From sequence record PX418922.1: DNA of 64,000 bases; one strand, written 5' to 3'. The first letter of the stretch is position 1, and every line of letters begins with the position of its first letter. The position numbers were made by a program, and so were the translations under genes. Under the pieces are notes generated by a model, which made no database searches, was not told where the DNA came from, and worked only from the letters and a program-made list of their open reading frames with translations. This DNA comes from a phage. This document shows positions 6,319 to 15,616 of the stretch, one piece after another.

Positions 6319-6509
6319 TTCTTTACGTACTCCATGATTGGGGTATGGTCGCCAGTAAGCGTAACACGGCTGTAGGACACATCTTGTGTCTTCAATGTAT
6401 CAATCCACTCTAAGAAGTGTTCTTTCGCTTCTGTGTAGTTCTGTGTGCCTTTAACAACGTGTATACCATCTAGTGTTACACGGAATACCATTTGAATAAC
6501 GTCTTTCAT
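6315..6509 (-). CDS. hypothetical protein
   Basis: ORF. Confidence 0.35.
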   Translation of the reverse strand: MKDVIQMVFRVTLDGIHVVKGTQNYTEAKEHFLEWIDTLKTQDVSYSRVTLTGDHTPIMEYVKK

Positions 6510-6605
6510 TTCTTACCTCCTTTGTTGTCAAAGTAGCTTACCAGAACATCGTGAACCACACACATGGCAAAAATCAGAACAATTGTTGCCAGGATTGGGT
6601 TCTCA

Positions 6606-6929
6606 CTAATTAGTGCTATCATCTTTAACCACCTCCAATTGCCTTTCGAGTTTGACTTTGTTTGAGAACTGATAATGACACAACTTACATTGCATGTCAA
6701 CAATCTGATCGTGATTTAACCCTACAATTTTAACTTCCTTTGCACCATCCCACTCCAAATACTCAAAGTCATCCAAATGATTACTCTTGTCCAACAAGAA
6801 TGCTATCTGCTGCCATTCGATCTGAATGTCATTTAAATGATATGCTGCACAGAAGATATCCTCATAGTAAAAGACGATCATTGTCATTACTTCGTCCAGT
6901 ACAACTACCTCTTGTCTTGTAAATCTCAT
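6606..6929 (-). CDS. hypothetical protein (first gene of leftward early operon)
   Basis: ORF immediately left of divergent control region. Confidence 0.4.
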   Translation of the reverse strand: MRFTRQEVVVLDEVMTMIVFYYEDIFCAAYHLNDIQIEWQQIAFLLDKSNHLDDFEYLEWDGAKEVKIVGLNHDQIVDMQCKLCHYQFSNKVKLERQLEVVKDDSTN

Positions 6930-7186
6930 TCTAGCCTCCTAAACGCGTCTCTGACGCACTTTTTATATATAAGATGATAAATCACCTTACCTAGTAAGTA
7001 AACTTGCTCTACGAGCCTCTTATGAAGCTTATGTTATAGGCTATACTATTGCTACCTGTTTAAGCAAGGTTTTTTGCACACAGAAAATAATTTTTTAATA
7101 AAACTCTTGACTTTTGTGTTCGAAGTATGCTACCCTAGAAATCTATTAACGAGCGCAGCGAGTTAAGGTTTTAGGTTGTTGATGTA

Positions 7187-7220
7187 GTACTCTGTACTCA
7201 AGTACTGTACTCCGTACTAG
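7187..7220. repeat. tandem heptad repeat (GTACTCN)x5
   Basis: Direct reading of sequence. Confidence 0.7.
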
Positions 7221-7385
7221 ATTAATAATTATTAAATATTAATAATAAATAATTATTAGATCTAACAAACAGGTACAGTGTATCAGAACTGGTACGTACA
7301 GATCAACTTCTATCAATTAAAAAATAAAATAATAAATTATTATAAATAATACTTGATCTATAGATCAGTATGAAGTACAGTACGT
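7187..7385. promoter_or_regulatory. divergent control region: GTAC-type tandem repeats flanking AT-rich palindromes (candidate operator array or origin)
   Basis: Five tandem about-7-bp units GTACTCT GTACTCA AGTACT GTACTCC GTACTAG at 7187-7220; near-palindromic TAATAATTATTAAATATTAATAATAAATAATTATTA at 7221-7257; GGTACAG / GGTACGTACAG / GTACAGTACGT copies at 7271-7301 and 7374-7385; GATCTATAGATC palindrome at 7355-7366. Confidence 0.5.
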
Positions 7386-7413
7386 AACATCTTAACAAGA
7401 ATGGAGGTGTGCA

Positions 7414-7599
7414 ATGATTAGTGAGAATCCGTGCAAATGGCATCATGTGCCTATTAAAGATTGTATGTCTTGTAATCCACGTTCTATTTATAACATTGCA
7501 TCTTATGATGATGACAATGTGTTAGACGATGATGAAGGCTGGGAGGATTTAGATTGGACTGGTTATGAAACCAAAAGGGATAAAATTATTCCTAGTTGA
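7414..7599 (+). CDS. hypothetical protein
   Basis: ATG preceded by GGAGG; acidic C-terminus. Confidence 0.4.
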   Translation: MISENPCKWHHVPIKDCMSCNPRSIYNIASYDDDNVLDDDEGWEDLDWTGYETKRDKIIPS

Positions 7600-7636
7600 C
7601 TTAAGATATCCTTCGTGCTAAACTAGAAGTGAGGAG

Positions 7637-7888
7637 ATGCCGATCACTCCCCATTTGGGGTTCGAAGGATATATGCAAAATAGCTTTTATTTTAGGTGCC
7701 GTGCTTGTAATAGGCATTTGACAAACCACTCCAGACGTGATAAAAATGGAGTCATCAAGGAATCAGACCTCTGTTCTATTTGCACAGGTTTGGCTTTTGA
7801 TGATAGTCCCGAAAGGGTTTATCAGCATCAATATATAACAGACGTTCTCGTGTCAAACTTGGTAGAGGACGAACAACTAACAGATTAG
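7637..7888 (+). CDS. small zinc-finger protein
   Basis: CRACNRH...CSIC cysteine pairs; true start may be the internal Met (MQNSF). Confidence 0.35.
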   Translation: MPITPHLGFEGYMQNSFYFRCRACNRHLTNHSRRDKNGVIKESDLCSICTGLAFDDSPERVYQHQYITDVLVSNLVEDEQLTD

Positions 7889-7896
7889 GAGGAACA

Positions 7897-8145
7897 ATGT
7901 CTCTATTAGAAAAACACGTGTTTGAAGATGGTAACGGCAATGCAGTTTTTCTTTTCCATCCAGAAAAATACACATCTGAAAACAATGGTACAACTTCTAT
8001 TGTAATCACTAAAGATGTTAAAGTTATTGATTTCTTGGCTCTGATGCGAGAGATGGATCTTGAAATTAATACTTTTAACGCAGAAGCTTTGGTTGTTGCT
8101 CTTCTGGAAAAGAAAGATAGTGAAGAAGTAGCAGAATATGCTTAA
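7897..8145 (+). CDS. hypothetical protein
   Basis: ATG preceded by AGGAGGAACA. Confidence 0.45.
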   Translation: MSLLEKHVFEDGNGNAVFLFHPEKYTSENNGTTSIVITKDVKVIDFLALMREMDLEINTFNAEALVVALLEKKDSEEVAEYA

Positions 8146-8153
8146 ATAACTAT

Positions 8154-8183
8154 TGACAAACGTATCCTTCATATGTTAGGATA
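8154..8183 (+). promoter_or_regulatory. sigma70-like promoter (TTGACA-N18-TAGGAT)
   Basis: Member of recurring CTATTGACAA family; upstream of first tRNA block. Confidence 0.5.
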
Positions 8184-8391
8184 CGTTCATCAAGTGTGGT
8201 AACAGTGTCGTTGACTTTTGTTAAGAGGGGCTTGCACTGCGGTAGTGTTAGAGACTACTTCTTCAGAGGTTAGCTACCAAAGAGGAAAAGGAACAGTCTC
8301 GGCTCAAGAACTTTTACGCTGAAAGTTGGGCTTGGTCTTAGAGAATGTAGCGGTTCTCTACAATCGTCAGCGTCTCTGTTACCACATTTAT

Positions 8392-8463
8392 GGCCCTGTA
8401 GCTCAATGGGAGAGCTGTCGGCTCATAACCGATAGGTAGCTGGATCGAAACCAGCCAGGGCCA
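8392..8463 (+). tRNA. tRNA-Met (anticodon CAT)
   Basis: Hand-folded cloverleaf: 7-bp acceptor GGCCCTG/CAGGGCC, D-stem GCTC/GAGC, anticodon loop CTCATAA, T-arm, encoded CCA. Confidence 0.7.
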
Positions 8464-8468
8464 CCAAC

Positions 8469-8540
8469 GTCTTTATGGTGTAATGGATAGCACAGGAGTC
8501 TTCTAAACTCTTAGTCAAGGTTCGATTCCTTGTAAAGACA
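8469..8540 (+). tRNA. tRNA-Arg (anticodon TCT)
   Basis: Hand-folded cloverleaf: acceptor GTCTTTA/TAAAGAC, anticodon loop CTTCTAA, T-loop TTCGATT, CCA encoded. Confidence 0.65.
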
Positions 8541-8739
8541 CCAGAACATTTTAACATGAATTAGCTCAAGTGATTTGAACCCACTACTGATCATGGTGGC
8601 AGAGAATGAGGCAAGTATGTCAGACATTATAAACAAAGGCCACGGTTATATTAGAAGACATAAATGCTCGAAGAGCACCGCTCGTGGAGAACGGGGGTTG
8701 GTGGAGTCACCATTCATGGTAAAATGTTTTAAAAAACTA

Positions 8740-8769
8740 TTGACAACTAACATTATTTTATGTTAGATT
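8740..8769 (+). promoter_or_regulatory. sigma70-like promoter (TTGACA-N17/18-TAGAT)
   Basis: CTATTGACAA family member directly upstream of tRNA-Ser. Confidence 0.5.
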
Positions 8770-8777
8770 ATAAGTAT

Positions 8778-8865
8778 GGAAGGGCAAATCGACGTGGCGA
8801 CGAAAACGGTCTTGAAAACCGCCGAGCTTGAAAGAGCCTTGGGAGTTCGACTCTCCCTCCTTCCG
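8778..8865 (+). tRNA. tRNA-Ser (anticodon TGA), long variable arm
   Basis: Acceptor GGAAGGG/TCCTTCC, anticodon loop CTTGAAA, long extra arm, T-loop TTCGACT, CCA encoded. Confidence 0.65.
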
Positions 8866-8872
8866 CCAGATT

Positions 8873-8955
8873 GGTAGATTGGTGAAATGGTAGCCACGAC
8901 AGTTTGCTAAACTGTAGTCGGAAACGGCGTGTAGGTTCGAGTCCTACATCTACCG
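8873..8955 (+). tRNA. tRNA-Ser (anticodon GCT), long variable arm
   Basis: Acceptor GGTAGAT/ATCTACC, anticodon stem ACAGT/ACTGT with loop TTGCTAA, extra arm, CCA encoded. Confidence 0.7.
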
Positions 8956-9088
8956 CCAAGTTCTTTTTAATATAGCTTACTTTAGCAGAGTAAATCTTCG
9001 GCAAGTGGCGGTAACCACTTTACCGATAACTCATAGTTAGTGGTGTGAACACTGGCTATTTTAAAAAGAATTTAAATATTAGCATTTA

Positions 9089-9173
9089 GGTGAGTTAATT
9101 CCGTAGGGGTAGCGGGGCAGACTGTAAATCTGTTATCATTGCGATTCGGGTGGTTCGACTCCATCACTCACCA
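9089..9173 (+). tRNA. tRNA-Tyr (anticodon GTA), long variable arm
   Basis: Acceptor GGTGAGT/ACTCACC, anticodon loop CTGTAAA, extra arm hairpin, CCA encoded. Confidence 0.7.
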
Positions 9174-9182
9174 CCAAATTAA

Positions 9183-9265
9183 GATGAGTTGGCTGAATGG
9201 TTTAAGCGGCGGACTGTTAATCCGTGTTCGAAAGAACGATATAGGTTCAAATCCTATACTCATCG
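9183..9265 (+). tRNA. type II (long-arm) tRNA, anticodon loop reads CTGTTAA (GTT by position; identity uncertain)
   Basis: Acceptor GATGAGT/ACTCATC, 3-bp D-stem, variable-arm hairpin GTTC-GAAA-GAAC, T-loop TTCAAAT, CCA encoded; a GTT anticodon with a long extra arm is atypical. Confidence 0.5.
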
Positions 9266-9275
9266 CCAGAATTAT

Positions 9276-9351
9276 GGACTTGTAGAGTTAAGGTAAACCC
9301 CCAGTCGCCAAGAGGCTTCTGGAATTGCAGGTATCGAATCCTGCCGAGTCC
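9276..9351 (+). tRNA. tRNA-like element (degenerate; possible pseudo-tRNA)
   Basis: Acceptor GGACTTG/CGAGTCC and T-arm-like GCAGG-TATCGAAT-CCTGC (8-nt loop) present but no canonical anticodon arm; no CCA. Confidence 0.3.
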
Positions 9352-9358
9352 CAGCTTT

Positions 9359-9430
9359 GCTCCTATAGTATAATGGCTATTACAACGGTTTTGTAATCCG
9401 TGGATCTCTGTTCGATTCAGAGTGGGAGCA
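9359..9430 (+). tRNA. tRNA-Thr (anticodon TGT), tentative
   Basis: Acceptor GCTCCTA/TGGGAGC, T-arm CTCTG-TTCGATT-CAGAG, CCA encoded; anticodon stem has a T-T at the loop-closing pair. Confidence 0.5.
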
Positions 9431-9707
9431 CCAACACAACATTAAGAGCACTGTGATTGATCGTCGTATCCTGTGCACAAGGTCTGTTCGAAAGACAGTG
9501 TTCTTAGTATTGTGTTGATCACACAAAAAGAGTTACCTGAAACTTGACCGGAGTAGGGTTGGATGGGGCAAAAGAAGAAGCGGCTCTCCCATCGACAGCA
9601 AGAAGAATAATATTTGACTTTGGTTTTGTATTATTTTAAGTTAGCTTACCGAACGTAGGGCTAGTCACCCAACGGGATACTCGTCACTGTCCCACTCAAT
9701 AAAACTA

Positions 9708-9737
9708 TTGACAACCAATAGTAAAATGTAGTATAGT
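9708..9737 (+). promoter_or_regulatory. sigma70-like promoter (TTGACA-N18-TATAGT)
   Basis: CTATTGACAA family member upstream of tRNA at 9749. Confidence 0.5.
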
Positions 9738-9748
9738 AAAGATGTAGG

Positions 9749-9819
9749 GCGTTCTTGGTGTAGCGGTAGCATTCCGTCCTTCCAAGTCGGCGGCACGAGT
9801 TCGATCCTCGTAGAACGCT
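9749..9819 (+). tRNA. tRNA-Gly (anticodon TCC), tentative
   Basis: Acceptor GCGTTCT/AGAACGC, T-arm ACGAG-TTCGATC-CTCGT, anticodon loop CTTCCAA, CCA encoded; one mismatch in anticodon stem. Confidence 0.5.
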
Positions 9820-9920
9820 CCAAATTATTTAATAAAGGGTTGCCAGAAAACTTTCTCTTTTACTCATGGTTTTCTCCTTCTCTCACACCTCTTCTGGTTG
9901 CCCTTCATTAAATGATTTAT

Positions 9921-9993
9921 TGGTTTGTAGTGTAGTCAGGTAGCACACGACACTTTGACTGTCGTAGGTTTGGTTCAAATCCAGACAGACCAG
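9921..9993 (+). tRNA. tRNA-Gln (anticodon TTG)
   Basis: Acceptor TGGTTTG/CAGACCA, anticodon stem CGACA/TGTCG with loop CTTTGAC, T-loop TTCAAAT, CCA encoded. Confidence 0.7.
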
Positions 9994-10001
9994 CCATATA
10001 A

Positions 10002-10075
10002 CGGAATTTAGCTCAGTTTGGTAGAGCATACGCTTTGGGAGCGTAGGGTCGCAGGTTCGAATCCTGCAATTCCGA
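10002..10075 (+). tRNA. tRNA-Pro (anticodon TGG)
   Basis: C1-G72 acceptor (CGGAATT/AATTCCG) as usual for bacterial tRNA-Pro, anticodon stem TACGC/GCGTA with loop TTTGGGA, T-loop TTCGAAT, CCA encoded. Confidence 0.7.
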
Positions 10076-10084
10076 CCAATTTAA

Positions 10085-10155
10085 TGTTTCGTAGTTCAAT
10101 GGTAGAACCCACGACTGATAATCGTGAGACACAAGTTCGATTCTTGTCGAAACAA
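10085..10155 (+). tRNA. tRNA-Ile (anticodon GAT)
   Basis: Acceptor TGTTTCG/CGAAACA, anticodon stem CACGA/TCGTG with loop CTGATAA, T-arm ACAAG-TTCGATT-CTTGT, CCA encoded. Confidence 0.65.
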
Positions 10156-10160
10156 CCAGT

Positions 10161-10230
10161 TTCCCGTTAGACTTACAGGATAAGAGTTCCACAGCTTATT
10201 GTGATGCTGGTTCGAATCCAGCACGGGATA
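10161..10230 (+). tRNA. tRNA-like element, anticodon arm not resolvable
   Basis: Acceptor (1-72 mismatch) and canonical T-arm GCTGG-TTCGAAT-CCAGC present; anticodon arm could not be folded by hand; no CCA. Confidence 0.3.
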
Positions 10231-10236
10231 CCTAAT

Positions 10237-10312
10237 AGCGGGATAGAGGAGTCTGGTCGTCCTCGCCAGTTTCATATGCTGGAGATCATTGGTTCAAATC
10301 CAATTCCCGCCT
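10237..10312 (+). tRNA. tRNA with CAT anticodon (Met, initiator or Ile2-type)
   Basis: Anticodon stem CCAGT/GCTGG with loop TTCATAT, D-stem GAGG/CCTC, T-arm ATTGG-TTCAAAT-CCAAT, CCA encoded; A1-C72 mismatch at acceptor end. Confidence 0.6.
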
Positions 10313-10430
10313 CCAAATATCGCTTGCCAGCGGTATCTTTGAAGACCTTGCCTGGTTCCTTCTAAGAGGAGGGGTGCGACTCCTTAACGCACAATTATAA
10401 TAAAGCATTTCAAATTAACAGTATTTATTA

Positions 10431-10471: not shown

Positions 10472-10500
10472 TTGACTTATTATTTTTTATATGTTAAGAT
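10472..10500 (+). promoter_or_regulatory. sigma70-like promoter (TTGACT-N17-TAAGAT)
   Basis: Consensus-like -35/-10 about 20 nt upstream of RBS AGGAGG of the 10522 ORF. Confidence 0.5.
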
Positions 10501-11816: not shown

Positions 11817-13892
11817 GTGGCAAAGAAAAAGGCAGCAGGTAGTTTAGCTGGAGTAGATATTGAAGTAAAGGCTCAACCAGGTAAACAGACTCTTGCAATG
11901 GATTTAATGCCAGAAGTTATGATTTATGGTGGTGCCGCTGGATGTGTTTCGGCTGAAACGGAATATCTTACAAAAGATGGTTGGAGGCAGATTAGTGAAT
12001 ATTCGGGAGAGGATATTTACCAATACAATCCTAAGAATAAGCGTTTAGAATTGGTAACACCTTATTTTGTAGAATATGATTTAAATGGAGATAACCTATA
12101 CAGAATAACAAATGGTGTAGGATTGTTCCAAGAACTTAGTATGGAACACCGTTTTGTATTCTATAAGAAAAAGAAATCAAAGAAACATTTCGAGATTCTT
12201 GTAGGAGATCTTATTGCATTACAGCAAATAGGAAAACCCCTGCAAGGTTATGTAGAAAATCCATTCGGTAAACGTGTTCCTTTTAACATACCTGGTAAAA
12301 AGAGCACTTACTTAAAAATACACGAGGTTATTTCAACAGATGATAAGAAATATTGTTTTGAGACTCCAAGCAGCTATATTGTCTTTAGACGTGGCGATCA
12401 CTGCTTCGTTACTGGGAATAGCGGCAAGTCTCGTCTGCTATTGCTGAAAGCTTTAAAATACGCCTACAAAGACCCTTTGTTTGGTGGAATACTTTTCCGT
12501 AAGAACACCACTGCTCACCGTAAACCAGGTGGTCTGTTTACAGAAGCAAAACGTTTGTATCTTCCTTTACAACCACACGTAAAAGAAAGTACAATGGATA
12601 TCATTTTTGAAGCCACTGGTGGCGGAACCCTCAAATTTGACCATTTGGAAAATGATAACGTAACAGCAGAAACAAACCATCAGGGTACACAGTATTCAAT
12701 GGTAGGTTTTGACGAGTTAACCCACTTCACACAATATGAAATGCTCTATCTTCTAGGACGTATGCGTTCAGAGTCAGAAACAAGTTTCATGTTGTGCACA
12801 TGTAACCCTGACGCAGATAGTTGGGTTTTGAATTGGGTGTTACCTTATCTTGATGAGGGTGGTTATCCTAGAGAAGATATGTGTGGTAAACAAAAATATT
12901 TCATCATTGTTAACGATGAACCTGTTTTTGCTGACACACCTGAAGAACTGAAAGAAAAATATCCAGAAAACTGTTTCATGGAAAACCCTAATACAGGGGA
13001 GACAGTTGTTATTGAACCACAAACTTTCGTATTTATTGGTGGGACAATATTTGATAACCCAGAACTCATTAGGCTTAACCCTAATTACTTAGCACAGCTT
13101 AAATCACAAACAGCGATCAAAAGAGCACAGCTTCTGGACGGTTGTTGGTTTGCACGTATCCAGAAAGAATCTTTCTTTCAGCGTGAATGGTTACATAAAA
13201 TATCTTATAAAGATGTTCCTAACAATCTTAAACTAATGCGAGCATGGGATAAAGCTGTTTCAGTTCCTACAGAAACTTACCGTTATCCAGACTATACAAC
13301 ATCTGTCAAAATGGGTAAAGACCAAGATGGTAATATCTACATCTTTGGCGATTATGATTATGATGCTGTGGATGAGAAAAGTAAAATTTTCGGAAGGTTT
13401 CGAAGACTACCTGGGGAAAGGGATAACCTGATTCTAAATCAATGTAAAATTGATGGACCAGAAGTTACAGTAGTGCTTCCTAAAGACCCATCTGGTGCTG
13501 GGACAATAGAATACACAGAGTCTGCAAAGAAACTTATTCTAGAGGGTTTTGTTGTTAAACCAGATGCTATGCCAGGTAACAAGAAAAAGCTTCAGCGTTT
13601 CATGCCTTTTAGTAGTGCGTGTCAAAACGGTTTTGTTTATATTGTTGAAGATTCTTTCCCTAATGTGGAGACTTTAACCCACTTTTATAAAGAATTGGAA
13701 TCTTTCAATGGTGAAAGATCTACAGCCACTATTAAAGATGACATTCCCGATGCTGCTGCCTCTTGTTTTAATACTCTATCAAAAGAGAATACTTTCAAAG
13801 CAGTAGCTATCCCTACAACAACAAATGCTCCTACAGGATACAGTAGAATGAACAGCGGATTTCACCAACCGTATAGTGTCCGTAAAAGATAA
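11817..13892 (+). CDS. terminase large subunit, interrupted by an in-frame mini-intein
   Basis: Position ahead of portal and head genes; Walker A GAAGSGKS is reconstituted only when residues 43-201 are removed; 691 aa. Confidence 0.8.
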   Translation: MAKKKAAGSLAGVDIEVKAQPGKQTLAMDLMPEVMIYGGAAGCVSAETEYLTKDGWRQISEYSGEDIYQYNPKNKRLELVTPYFVEYDLNGDNLYRITNGVGLFQELSMEHRFVFYKKKKSKKHFEILVGDLIALQQIGKPLQGYVENPFGKRVPFNIPGKKSTYLKIHEVISTDDKKYCFETPSSYIVFRRGDHCFVTGNSGKSRLLLLKALKYAYKDPLFGGILFRKNTTAHRKPGGLFTEAKRLYLPLQPHVKESTMDIIFEATGGGTLKFDHLENDNVTAETNHQGTQYSMVGFDELTHFTQYEMLYLLGRMRSESETSFMLCTCNPDADSWVLNWVLPYLDEGGYPREDMCGKQKYFIIVNDEPVFADTPEELKEKYPENCFMENPNTGETVVIEPQTFVFIGGTIFDNPELIRLNPNYLAQLKSQTAIKRAQLLDGCWFARIQKESFFQREWLHKISYKDVPNNLKLMRAWDKAVSVPTETYRYPDYTTSVKMGKDQDGNIYIFGDYDYDAVDEKSKIFGRFRRLPGERDNLILNQCKIDGPEVTVVLPKDPSGAGTIEYTESAKKLILEGFVVKPDAMPGNKKKLQRFMPFSSACQNGFVYIVEDSFPNVETLTHFYKELESFNGERSTATIKDDIPDAAASCFNTLSKENTFKAVAIPTTTNAPTGYSRMNSGFHQPYSVRKR
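11943..12419 (+). mobile_element. mini-intein (159 aa, Hint domain without obvious homing-endonuclease domain) in the terminase P-loop
   Basis: Starts with Cys (CVSAETEY...), block B-like SMEHRF, ends ...FVTGN, followed by Ser; flanking exteins IYGGAAG + SGKSRLLLL form a canonical P-loop. Confidence 0.6.
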
Positions 13893-13993: not shown

Positions 13994-15559
13994 GTGTCAA
14001 CAGGAAAAAGAACGTACACTAAAAAGTCAGAATACTGGGACAAAGGTGCTGCAAATAAAGCTGCTCTCTCTCCAACAAAAGAGGCAGAGAAAGAGAAAAC
14101 GTTACTCCTGTCACCTGAAATAGGAACGATCGGATTAAACTCAATCAAAGCATTTACGAATTTCATGCAACCTTATGAGACTCGTTTCCCAGAATGTATT
14201 CGCACTTTTAAAGAGATGGGTGAAGACCCTGATGTAGCTACTGCTCTTGACGCTACATATATCTTTGTAGACAGAGCATTTTTTGATTTCAAGATAAAAT
14301 ACAATGTAAACTCGGCAAAGTCAAGAAAAGCTGCTAAGTTTATTGATTACATGTTACGCAATATGCAAGCCCCTCTACGTCAATATGTTAGATCACTTTT
14401 GACATATAAGCAATATGGTTTTGCATTCGCAGAGAAAGTTTATGAGTTGGATGAAGATCCTAAAAGTCCTTACTTTGGGTATTGGCGATTGACCAAACTG
14501 GCTTTTAGACCACAAGACACTCTTCACATGGCTCAACCTTTTACATATTCGGCAGACGGACGTTCTATTCTATCTGTTAACCAGAATATCACCAATACGA
14601 TGTTAGCTCCAGGTAATACAACTTTAGAAACTGGTATTAAAGAAATTCCTTTCAGTAAAGTTTTATTTGTTGGTAGCAACATTACAGAGAATAACCCACT
14701 AGGAGTTAGTCCGCTTTTAGCTGTATATCGTAGCTGGCGTGAAAAATCTCTTATTCAGGAATTTGAGGTTATTGGGGTATCTAAAGATTTAGGTGGTATG
14801 CCAGTTCTTAAGGTTCCAAGTGACATTCTAAACAGGGCATCTTTAGATCCTGCTGGGGATGAAGCACAATCTCTTCGAGTTCTCCAAGCCAACATCGCTA
14901 ACCTGCACTCTGGTGAGCAAGCCTACATGGTATTGCCTTCAGACGTTTATGAAGGCACAGTGATGCGTCAATACGATCTTGTATTCCAAGGTGTTGATGG
15001 CACAGGTAAACAGTTTGACACTCAAGCACTAATCAAACAACGCAAGCTAGATATTTATAACCGCTTTGGTGCGGGTGTGTTGATTATGGGTGATGGTGAT
15101 GCAGGAAGTTTTGCGCTTTCTGACAACAAACAAACACTATTGTCTCATTTTATTGAGCGAGATGTAGATATTGTTGTAGAAGCTATAAACTCTCAACTGA
15201 TCCCTCAAACACTACGACTAAACAATATCTTCCTTTCTGATGAAGATATGCCTAAGTTTGTCAGTGGTGAAATGGGTGATCCTGATATTGAAGTAAATGC
15301 TAAAGCTATTCAGCAGTTGGTAGCCTCTGGTGCAATACCTTTAACCCCAGAAGTTATTAACGAGTTCCTTGAAAAAATTGGTTTTGAATATCGTATCCCT
15401 GACGATATTGTTGCCAATAAAGAGAAATTCTTTGAATTCATGGATAACTATATGCCTGACAAAACTTCACGATCAGGAGATGGTTTAGCTACAGCGGGAA
15501 CTGGAACGTCTGATACTGTTTCTGCTTTAGATCCTTCAGCACAAAACCTGTCGAATTAA
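13994..15559 (+). CDS. portal protein (by position and size)
   Basis: 521-aa ORF directly after terminase, GTG start preceded by GGAGGA; no motif recognised. Confidence 0.55.
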   Translation: MSTGKRTYTKKSEYWDKGAANKAALSPTKEAEKEKTLLLSPEIGTIGLNSIKAFTNFMQPYETRFPECIRTFKEMGEDPDVATALDATYIFVDRAFFDFKIKYNVNSAKSRKAAKFIDYMLRNMQAPLRQYVRSLLTYKQYGFAFAEKVYELDEDPKSPYFGYWRLTKLAFRPQDTLHMAQPFTYSADGRSILSVNQNITNTMLAPGNTTLETGIKEIPFSKVLFVGSNITENNPLGVSPLLAVYRSWREKSLIQEFEVIGVSKDLGGMPVLKVPSDILNRASLDPAGDEAQSLRVLQANIANLHSGEQAYMVLPSDVYEGTVMRQYDLVFQGVDGTGKQFDTQALIKQRKLDIYNRFGAGVLIMGDGDAGSFALSDNKQTLLSHFIERDVDIVVEAINSQLIPQTLRLNNIFLSDEDMPKFVSGEMGDPDIEVNAKAIQQLVASGAIPLTPEVINEFLEKIGFEYRIPDDIVANKEKFFEFMDNYMPDKTSRSGDGLATAGTGTSDTVSALDPSAQNLSN

Positions 15560-15587
15560 AAATATTTAATATTTTTTAATTTTTCTA

Positions 15588-15616
15588 TTGACAAAACAAC
15601 AAATATCCTGTAGACT
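15588..15616 (+). promoter_or_regulatory. sigma70-like promoter (TTGACA-N17-TAGACT)
   Basis: CTATTGACAA family member between portal and head genes. Confidence 0.45.

Follow-up and report, generated by a model that had tools for sequence, protein, structure and literature searches.

Rightward and leftward transcription in large lytic myoviruses of the rV5 type is predicted to start from host-type promoters at divergent switches between their four transcription blocks, and the GC skew of these genomes shifts with gene orientation. For the phages in question, bidirectional sigma-70 promoters were predicted at the switch points, many of them with an extended -10 element (Kropinski et al. 2013, PMC3606486). 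The same organisation is predicted for the phage DNA described here, a window of 64,000 nucleotides from sequence record PX418922.1. The window belongs to the genus Phapecoctavirus (subfamily Stephanstirmvirinae), phAPEC8-like myoviruses of Escherichia coli with a genome of around 150 kb. An earlier note had singled out positions 7187 to 7385 of this window as a divergent control region with tandem repeats and AT palindromes, and as a candidate replication origin or operator array. The reading that we favour, with moderate confidence, is that the region is the central divergent control region of early transcription, in which host sigma-70-type promoters are combined with repeated boxes that would bind proteins. 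As an element it is of a conventional kind, though previously uncharacterised; the unusual part is an island of GTAC sites in a genome that avoids GTAC. The rV5 phages belong to a different subfamily, and their promoters were predicted by consensus only, with no description of TAGATC or GTAC boxes, of a duplicated AT module, or of a promoter class formed by TGnTACCCT and CGAGCGnAGCGAG.

A second point of comparison is given by the looping switches lambda OL/OR, gal, lac and deo, where several partly palindromic boxes are spread over around 200 bp and one of them covers a -10. The locus described here has the same layout, with an identical inverted copy of the box on the -10 located 172 bp upstream, across bendable AT-rich DNA. 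Contrary to those systems, the repressor is here only putative, the boxes are 5-9 bp long instead of 14-20 bp, and the units of the array stand 5-8 bp apart, too close for one dimer per unit.

Rv5-, phi92- and phAPEC8-like phages are common therapy candidates, and their promoters, operators and origins have not been mapped experimentally. The analysis gives a testable map of one such control region, with two or three promoters, the class of TGnTACCCT plus CGAGCGnAGCGAG, the TAGATC box, and the most meltable DNA of the genome.

Predicted divergent promoters and repeated boxes

The non-coding gap that contains the region measures 484 bp, longer than the about 400 bp first stated. It separates a leftward block, ~36 kb long in phage Schickermooser (a genome defined by its terminal repeats) and carrying genes for ligase, exonuclease, ribonucleotide reductase and similar functions, from a rightward block of ~43 kb with three small genes, ten tRNA genes (8392-10315), the large terminase gene (11817-13892) and the structural genes. 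The gap is one of two divergent switch points in the genome, the other being located at ~130.3 kb in Schickermooser. Positions 6500-8200 of the window are 96-99.5% identical to around 65 GenBank phages, and the gap itself is 96-99% identical in around 65 Phapecoctavirus records; in the GenBank records of relatives the flagged stretch is either left without annotation or labelled simply as 'repeat_region'. The description as a divergent control region is borne out by this arrangement and by sigma-70-type promoters whose position is conserved across genera. The divergent promoters lie at 6974-7136, to the left of the flagged coordinates, and the flagged stretch is the leader of the rightward promoter P_R1.

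What carries the favoured reading are sequence motifs, their statistics, a promoter-like geometry and a pattern of conservation. The sigma-70 geometry is present on both strands, with a spacing of 18 bp in P_R1 and of 17 bp in both the second rightward promoter, P_R2, and the leftward promoter, P_L. Conservation was followed in four related lineages, the phiWec phages, phi92 (Justusliebigvirus), Klebsiella phage phi1_175008 and Citrobacter phage Tr1. In each of them the equivalent leftward operon is headed by a homologue of the 107-amino-acid (aa) protein encoded by the first leftward gene, beside a divergent gap of 400-500 bp. These gaps share one plan: P_R1 in the form TTGAC(T/A)-N15-TGn-TACCCTA, the motif CGAGCGnAGCGAG, TAGAT(C) boxes, an AT-rich tract, and P_R2 in the form TTGAC(T/C)-(T)TAGATC-...-TA(G/C)AGT. 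P_R1 is conserved in five lineages; besides the four relatives, it is seen in IMG/VR relatives. P_R1, the leader motif, the AT tract and P_R2 keep their position in the four relatives while the surrounding DNA changes. The AT-rich block stands directly upstream of P_R2 in all four (in phi92 as ~35 bp of AT only), and the counterparts of P_R2 read TTGACT-TTTAGATC..-TAGAGT in phi92 and phiWec and TTGACC..TACACT in the Klebsiella phage. On the leftward side, the block GATGATAAATCACCTTACC that holds P_L recurs almost unchanged in phiWec and can in part be recognised in phi92 and Tr1, and the second leftward candidate matches in position a phiWec sequence TTGTGT-16-TATAGT.

The unit of P_R1 and its leader occurs three times per Phapecoctavirus genome, here and, on the minus strand, at 15108 and 128649 of Schickermooser (MK373788). 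The three members form a class, TTGACTTTT..ATATG(C/G)TACCCTA followed after 13-16 nt by CGAGCGnAGCGAG and then by several TAGAT boxes, and the leader motif CGAGCGcAGCGAG is present in all three paralogous copies of each genome and in all orthologues. TAGAT boxes are in excess in all of these leaders: 6 were counted in the leader of the window against 0.71 expected (P = 1e-4), 6 against 0.63 in that of phi92, 3 against ~0.65 in the other leaders, and 8 against 0.59 and 4 against 0.37 in the second and third paralogue, respectively. GATC is found 4 times in the region (1.14 expected, P = 0.03) and AGATC/GATCT 5 times (0.71 expected, P = 9e-4), the exact AGATCT once; in phiWec and Tr1, AGATC/GATCT reaches 7-8 copies where 0.5-0.6 are expected. 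Their recurrence in orthologues and paralogues alike makes the TAGATC boxes the strongest candidates for operators, and they contain Dam sites as well. The proposal of an operator array is plausible for these boxes, enriched as they are in every orthologous or paralogous leader. The GTACT array is confined to the genus and is the least conserved part of the region.

Within the leader, the pattern TAGAT[CT]-N8-12-TA[GC]A[GC]T has two matches, at 7257 and 7361, which are the only ones in ~150 kb and lie 104 bp apart. A repeat pair of 72% identity (7224-7262 and 7328-7366) fits this distance. AT palindrome 1 can accordingly be assigned to a tandem duplicate of the P_R2 module, of which it forms the AT tract. 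The AT-only palindrome of about 37 bp announced earlier was recovered at 7221-7258; the run measures 38 bp, and its two arms of 18 nt show 89% complementarity. Together with its TAGAT/ATCTA flanks it gives a hairpin of 21 bp (z = -3.4). The P_R2 module contains the other AT-only run, which has 37 bp. Both are the longest AT-only runs of the genome (the next has 31 bp, and the following ones 20 bp at most) and its least stable 50-bp duplex windows. The GATCTATAGATC palindrome was likewise found, as an exact 12-bp palindrome at 7355-7366, and consists of two inverted TAGATC boxes within the -35 and spacer of P_R2. The motif GATCTAACA(A/G)AC of module A is also present in phi92 and Tr1. P_R2 itself sits 22 nt upstream of the ribosome-binding site (RBS) of the first rightward gene and 33 nt from its ATG.

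Under this reading, host sigma-70 polymerase would transcribe the long leftward block from the promoter at 6974-7002, and perhaps from that at 7040-7067, and P_R1 (7107-7136) would be read rightward into a 270-nt leader that opens with the conserved motif. The leader would then hold two tandem copies of a module made of AT tract, TAGATC box and TACAGT -10, the second of which, with a proper -35, would be P_R2. The AT tracts would work as UP-like upstream elements, easily bent or melted, and the TAGATC boxes as operators for a putative regulator or as Dam/GATC-sensitive sites. The GTAC boxes would add a second, genus-specific layer, made up of a redundant upstream array and, on the -10 of P_R2, its inverted counterpart. 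Through these boxes another binding activity could shut off access to P_R2, stop transcription arriving from P_R1, or loop out the AT-rich DNA that lies between 7202-7211 and 7374-7383. That the promoters fire, that proteins bind to the boxes, and which proteins these may be, is predicted from the motifs themselves.

Table 1. Features of the divergent gap (positions in the window) and nucleotide diversity (pi) in ten reliable Phapecoctavirus genomes
Feature	Position	Strand	Remarks	pi
Whole non-coding gap, 484 bp	6930-7413		First leftward start codon at 6929, first rightward ATG at 7414	
Hairpin GCGTC-AGA-GACGC	6945-6957	-	In the 5' untranslated region of the leftward operon, shortly before the RBS; from a stem-loop scan; also conserved in phiWec	
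Candidate leftward promoter P_L, TTTACT-17-TATCAT	6974-7002	-	Promoter scan; block GATGATAAATCACCTTACC	
Second, weaker candidate leftward promoter, TTGCTT-16-TATAGC	7040-7067	-	Inferred; -10 without the usual final T	
Putative promoter P_R1, TTGACT-N15-TGc-TACCCT	7107-7136	+	Extended -10, spacing 18; conserved in relatives	
P_R1 plus leader				0.011
Leader motif CGAGCGcAGCGAG	7150-7162	+	13-16 nt downstream of the P_R1 -10; flanked by TTAAC/GTTAA	
Short repeat TTAAGGTTT / TAGGTTG	7163-7178	+	1.5 to 3.5 copies by strain (UP17, Ro121lw, anhysbys)	
GTACT x5 array	7187-7218	+	Spacing 7/8/5/7; includes two AGTACT palindromes; this genus only	0.082 (highest in region)
GTACTGTACT	7202-7211		Exact reverse complement of AGTACAGTAC at 7374-7383, 172 bp apart	
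AT palindrome 1 (AT tract 1)	7218-7264		AT-only 7221-7258 plus TAGAT/ATCTA flanks; AT tract of the duplicated promoter module A	0.016
Module A core, TAGATC-N11-TACAGT	7257-7279	+	Includes the cross-genus motif GATCTAACA(A/G)AC; no recognisable -35	
Segment 7259-7314	7259-7314			0.011
GGTACGTACAGATCAACTTCTATC	7291-7314	+	Two GTAC sites and a conserved ACAGATC..CTCTAT-type motif	
AT block 2, 37-bp AT-only run	7315-7351		Directly upstream of the P_R2 -35; UP-element-like	
Putative promoter P_R2 (module B), TTGATC (7353-7358)-17-TACAGT (7376-7381)	7353-7381	+	By sequence	
Segment 7386-7413 (RBS region)	7386-7413			0.007
RBS GGAGG (7403-7407) and ATG (7414)	7403-7416	+	First rightward gene; 61-aa Cys/His-containing acidic protein of no assigned function	
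Third codon positions, flanking genes				0.026-0.040

The GTAC island

The cores of the GTACT array start at 7187, 7194, 7202, 7207 and 7214. Five tandem units of 7 bp had been described here: the five cores are present, and the regular period of 7 bp is not. Tandem Repeats Finder did not call the array and reported no regular heptad tandem, and a repeat search sees it as two 12-nt units, GTACTCTGTACT and GTACTCCGTACT, placed 20 bp apart. The further GGTAC(A/G) copies that had been mentioned were found (GGTACA at 7272, GGTACG at 7291), together with AGTACA at 7374 and AGTACG at 7379, and the GTAC sites outside the array start at 7273, 7292, 7296, 7375 and 7380. GTACAGTAC (7375-7383) overlaps the -10 of P_R2, and so does AGTACAGTAC, the partner of GTACTGTACT in the array; the pair is a candidate for looping operators or for a long-range RNA helix.

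No 4-mer palindrome of the window is as depleted as GTAC (63 observed, 203 expected), and in the ~150-kb genome it has the lowest observed-to-expected ratio (O/E) of all 256 4-mers, 0.325. Over the genome, the ratios are 0.33 for GTAC, 0.40 for GGCC, 0.41 for CCGG and 0.51 for CTAG, and GTAG/CTAC is in excess (1.5). The depletion of these four palindromes is a restriction-avoidance pattern, and is consistent with the high sensitivity to restriction systems reported for these unmodified phages in the BASEL paper. The island nonetheless holds 10 sites in 274 bp against 0.23 expected (Poisson P = 8e-14), so that 10 of the 63 sites of the window fall within 7187-7383, and a genome-wide scan found no comparable GTAC cluster elsewhere. 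As the island is kept despite the avoidance of this restriction site by the genome, it offers a handle for finding the factor that binds it.

A role of GTAC as a genome-wide operator or promoter motif was discarded, given that there is no other cluster and that the second divergent switch, at ~130.3 kb in Schickermooser, has none either. The next-densest group, 6 sites in 200 bp, is located in a host-like, rfbB-type gene for dTDP-glucose 4,6-dehydratase in Schickermooser (L021 34566-34764), which suggests a recently acquired gene whose GTAC sites have not yet been lost. Another candidate was the decay of GTAC by methylation, through the 'Dcm-like' gene Schickermooser_00059. This was rejected because GTAT/ATAC is not in excess (O/E 1.04) and GGCC, CCGG and CTAG are likewise depleted; the product of the gene (227 aa, L021 20767-21450) carries the GenBank note 'conserved domain Dcm' and has no methyltransferase match in Pfam. 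The host repressor TrpR was considered as well. Its operator consensus is an 18-bp palindrome of the GTACTAGTTAACTAGTAC type with GTACT half-sites, or tandem units 8 bp apart. The inverted pair of the array spans 19 bp (7187-7205) and the spacings are 7/8/5/7, and TrpR was set aside on inspection of this geometry against the consensus, in which no matrix score was computed.

Within the genus, P_R1 with its leader, the segment 7259-7314, AT tract 1 and the RBS region are each less variable than the third codon positions of the flanking genes (Table 1). The variability of the GTACT array comes from a 12-bp deletion in phage dw-ec, a natural variant with 3 units which suggests that phages with part of the array deleted are viable, and from two substitutions in phAPEC8, and the number of its units ranges from 3 to 5 among strains; 8 of the 10 GTAC sites are intact in all ten reliable genomes. 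Phage BI-EHEC (OL505078.1) behaves differently: compared with positions 1-52000 of the window, 25 of 50 GTAC sites are altered at an overall divergence of ~2%, including 9 of the 10 island sites, mostly from GTAC to ATAC or GTAT and in some cases by indels within open reading frames (ORFs). These changes look as if base calling had failed systematically at GTAC, in which case the DNA of that preparation may carry a modified base there; real selection against the site is the other possibility.

Outside the genus, the GTACT array is absent from the leaders of phiWec, phi92, the Klebsiella phage and Citrobacter Tr1. Phapecoctavirus alone carries the array, module A and most of the GTAC sites; there are 0-1 GTAC in the leaders of phiWec, phi92 and Tr1, and 3 in that of the Klebsiella phage, among them a homologous GTACAGnGTATCA. 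Absence of the repeats from related genomes had been named among the results that would speak against the first reading. It applies to these genus-specific elements; the TAGATC boxes and the AT tract are present in the related lineages. No match to the 107-aa protein was found in IMG/VR, a search there with the pattern of promoter plus leader returned only three contigs, and no plasmid homologues of the leader were found. Seunavirus matches to the 61-aa protein were discarded, since they are not syntenic.

Alternative readings: a possible origin, slippage, RNA structure or genome end

Several observations weigh against a control hub of early transcription. The flanking proteins match only PHROGs without assigned function, have no Pfam match above threshold and show no recognisable DNA-binding domain, and a literature search returned nothing on promoters, transcriptomes, transcription starts, binding or origins in Stephanstirmvirinae. 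A consensus promoter scan gave no more promoter-like matches than in shuffled sequence, and P_R1 and P_R2 were left unscored by the scanner because their -10 elements, TACCCT and TACAGT, are non-canonical. The AT tracts, with 37-38 bp, exceed what an UP element needs. The GTACT array shows no extra conservation, tolerating the deletion in dw-ec and the substitutions in phAPEC8, and to judge from this pattern it may be redundant or dispensable, without tight constraint.

An origin of replication, possibly in addition to the promoter role, is an alternative that we consider unlikely. In the T7 primary origin (phi1.1A/B plus an AT-rich region) and in T4 oriF and oriG (promoter plus unwinding element), a promoter is followed by AT-rich DNA within ~100-200 bp. 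The same order is found here, with P_R1 at 7107-7136 followed by the AT tracts at 7221-7258 and 7315-7351; as in those phages, a gp4-type primase-helicase is phage-encoded and no dedicated iteron-binding initiator is needed. The locus differs in being a candidate only, in having host sigma-70-type promoters instead of promoters dependent on a phage polymerase or on MotA, and in that its AT tracts double as upstream elements of the second promoter. Transcription by the host polymerase from P_R1 and P_R2 would open the AT tracts as DNA unwinding elements, a primase-helicase like T7 gp4 would load there, and the GTAC boxes (in this genus) and TAGATC boxes (in all genera) would be sites of auxiliary factors that recruit the replisome or time its action. 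Favourable to this alternative are the position of the two longest and least stable AT runs of the genome downstream of a conserved, strong-looking promoter, the single copy of the element, its location at the minimum of cumulative GC skew and at the main divergence of transcription, and the DnaB/gp4-type primase-helicase encoded by the phage, which is also described for rV5 (PMC3606486). On the other hand, in every genus the AT tracts are coupled to elements of the core promoter, and the GTACT array is irregular, genus-specific and unconstrained. The GC-skew check is itself ambiguous: the minimum does fall at the locus, but cannot be separated from gene orientation and gene class. The flip tracks gene orientation, as the rV5 authors also concluded (PMC3606486), and the structural block, which is co-oriented, has a weaker coding-strand skew than the block that replication would meet head-on.

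Known origins built on short repeats give a similar balance. E. coli oriC has GATC-containing 13-mers, and P1 oriR has five 7-bp GATC repeats. In both, as here, short repeats around a 4-bp palindrome stand beside an AT-rich tract, the adjacent AT-rich unwinding element that is expected of iteron origins, and AGATCT/AGATCA boxes appear enriched at this locus, with a single exact AGATCT. A review lists AGATCT as the ATP-DnaA box, a 6-mer, in the unwinding element of oriC, and GATC-type boxes are in excess both here and in the relatives. In contrast to oriC and P1 oriR, there is no cluster of DnaA 9-mer boxes and there are no 19-bp iterons, and the palindrome that clusters here, GTAC, is not known to be methylated in E. 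coli K-12. DnaA boxes of the TTATCCACA type number 0 with at most one mismatch and 1 with two mismatches, where 2.4 are expected, and a DnaA-dependent origin like oriC was accordingly rejected. The repeat search and Tandem Repeats Finder detected no iterons of 17-22 bp, only 12-nt and 5-nt cores at a spacing of 5-8 or 20 bp, and a Pfam and PHROGs search of the flanking proteins found no initiator gene next to the repeats. The picture of iteron-like repeats flanking an AT core is not what the anatomy shows: the AT tracts and GATCTATAGATC belong to putative promoter modules.

A further link to replication comes from uncultured phages. A scan of IMG/VR for GTACT arrays gave 82 loci, around 25 of which lie inside genes of 254-330 aa that match 'replication initiation protein' or 'DnaD-like helicase loader'. 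These loci follow a fixed order of lineage-specific iterons, (A[A/G]AGTAC)x4-5 and a palindrome with a stem of ~10 bp, and the array persists where iterons and proteins have diverged, the latter being 24-60% identical or unalignable. This heptamer module, found in unrelated phages, appears to be an undescribed conserved origin module. The array of the window resembles it in having 4-5 units with a GTAC core that abut an inverted repeat, further short repeats standing on the opposite side. It differs in its irregular period and its position in non-coding DNA without iterons, the module having a strict 7-bp period inside initiator genes beside clear iterons; the order of array and palindrome is mirrored between both, and the origin function of the module is itself inferred. 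There are, besides, irregular GTAC arrays near AT-rich DNA between or beside small- and large-terminase genes in IMG/VR (L089/L104, L039). Those arrays are possible packaging-site repeats of unrelated phages, and their likeness to the array of the window counts against the origin alternative. That the locus is the origin of phAPEC8-like phages, or one of them, coupled to the promoters and, by its position, common to all Stephanstirmvirinae, is in our view improbable. If it were, it would be the first origin for this phage group, it would be linked to the GTAC-heptamer origin module of uncultured phages, and GTAC heptad arrays would be a recurrent, undescribed component of origins; if not, the region is an ordinary though elaborate early promoter hub.

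Among the remaining explanations, the GTACT array, and perhaps the duplicated AT module, could be a recent product of slippage or duplication with no function of its own, so that only the promoters and the TAGATC boxes matter. We regard this as plausible but unlikely, about on a par with the origin. The array is absent from related lineages that share the rest of the layout, has the highest diversity within the genus, with 3 to 5 units, and is young, as all genomes carrying it are at least 96% identical; nearby short repeats (TTAAGGTTT) and AT blocks expand and contract too. However, GTAC is the most avoided 4-mer and ten unconstrained non-coding sites should be the easiest to lose, yet 8 of the 10 are intact in ten of ten reliable genomes, and the array has an exact 10-bp inverted match at the -10 of P_R2. 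A role at the level of RNA is considerably less probable still. In the P_R1 transcript, GUACUGUACU (7202-7211) would pair with AGUACAGUAC (7374-7383) and close an AU-rich domain, and the 21-bp AU hairpin (7218-7264) would be an RNase III-type site for processing or stability of the downstream small genes and tRNA precursors. The RNase III sites of T7 early RNA have about two helical turns, a size like that of the AU hairpin, and the predicted fold contains both the long-range helix and the hairpin (z-score -3.35). Rfam 15 gives no match up to E = 1 on either strand of 6800-8400, though, and covariation is uninformative among sequences so nearly identical. GTAC repeats, being palindromic, pair trivially, the long-range helix is missing from the related lineages, and P_R2 lies inside the structure, so that its own transcripts would lack it.

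The last alternative, a packaging signal or physical genome end (pac/cos or a terminal-repeat boundary) upstream of the terminase gene, can practically be dismissed. It was suggested by the position of the region 4.4 kb upstream of the large terminase gene, by irregular GTAC arrays beside small-terminase genes in two IMG/VR contigs, and by the record of phage nieznany, which starts and ends inside the region. Stephanstirmvirinae are reported to end in direct terminal repeats, and Schickermooser has an exact direct terminal repeat of 329 bp at its record ends, 54.5 kb away and with no match in the window, in agreement with the 328 bp given by Korf 2019. In the nieznany record the two ends share 237 bp, one copy of which has a 63-bp indel, and this points to an assembly break and not to a terminus. 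A terminus or pac site at this locus was rejected on these two grounds.

Neighbouring sequences and further promoter units

The nieznany record (MN850598.1; window 7204-7440) is of interest in its own right, as one copy of the overlapping ends lacks window positions 7278-7340, an indel in the second AT block. This suggests an assembly artefact at unstable DNA or heterogeneity of the second AT block in the population.

The order of AT tract and promoter seen in P_R2 is repeated at 15554-15584 of the window, where the third-longest AT-only run (31 bp) lies just upstream of a promoter-like site, TTGACA-N17-TAGACT, at 15588. The paralogous copy of P_R1 and its leader at ~15108 of Schickermooser is antisense to a rightward early gene cluster, has no obvious ORF downstream, and may drive a non-coding RNA.

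Sigma-70-like promoters are also found in and around the array of ten tRNA genes, at 8153-8182, 8740-8769, 9708-9737 and 10472-10500, several of them with an extended -10. The tRNA content varies among strains, and phage nepoznato has a gene for an HNH endonuclease inserted among the tRNAs. Outside the window, near the right genome end of Schickermooser (138-148.6 kb), around 20 repeated early units carry promoters of the TTGACA-N17-TAAGAT type before small ORFs, most of them with a near-identical leader, GTATCACATAGGGCGG...CCGC, that forms a hairpin.

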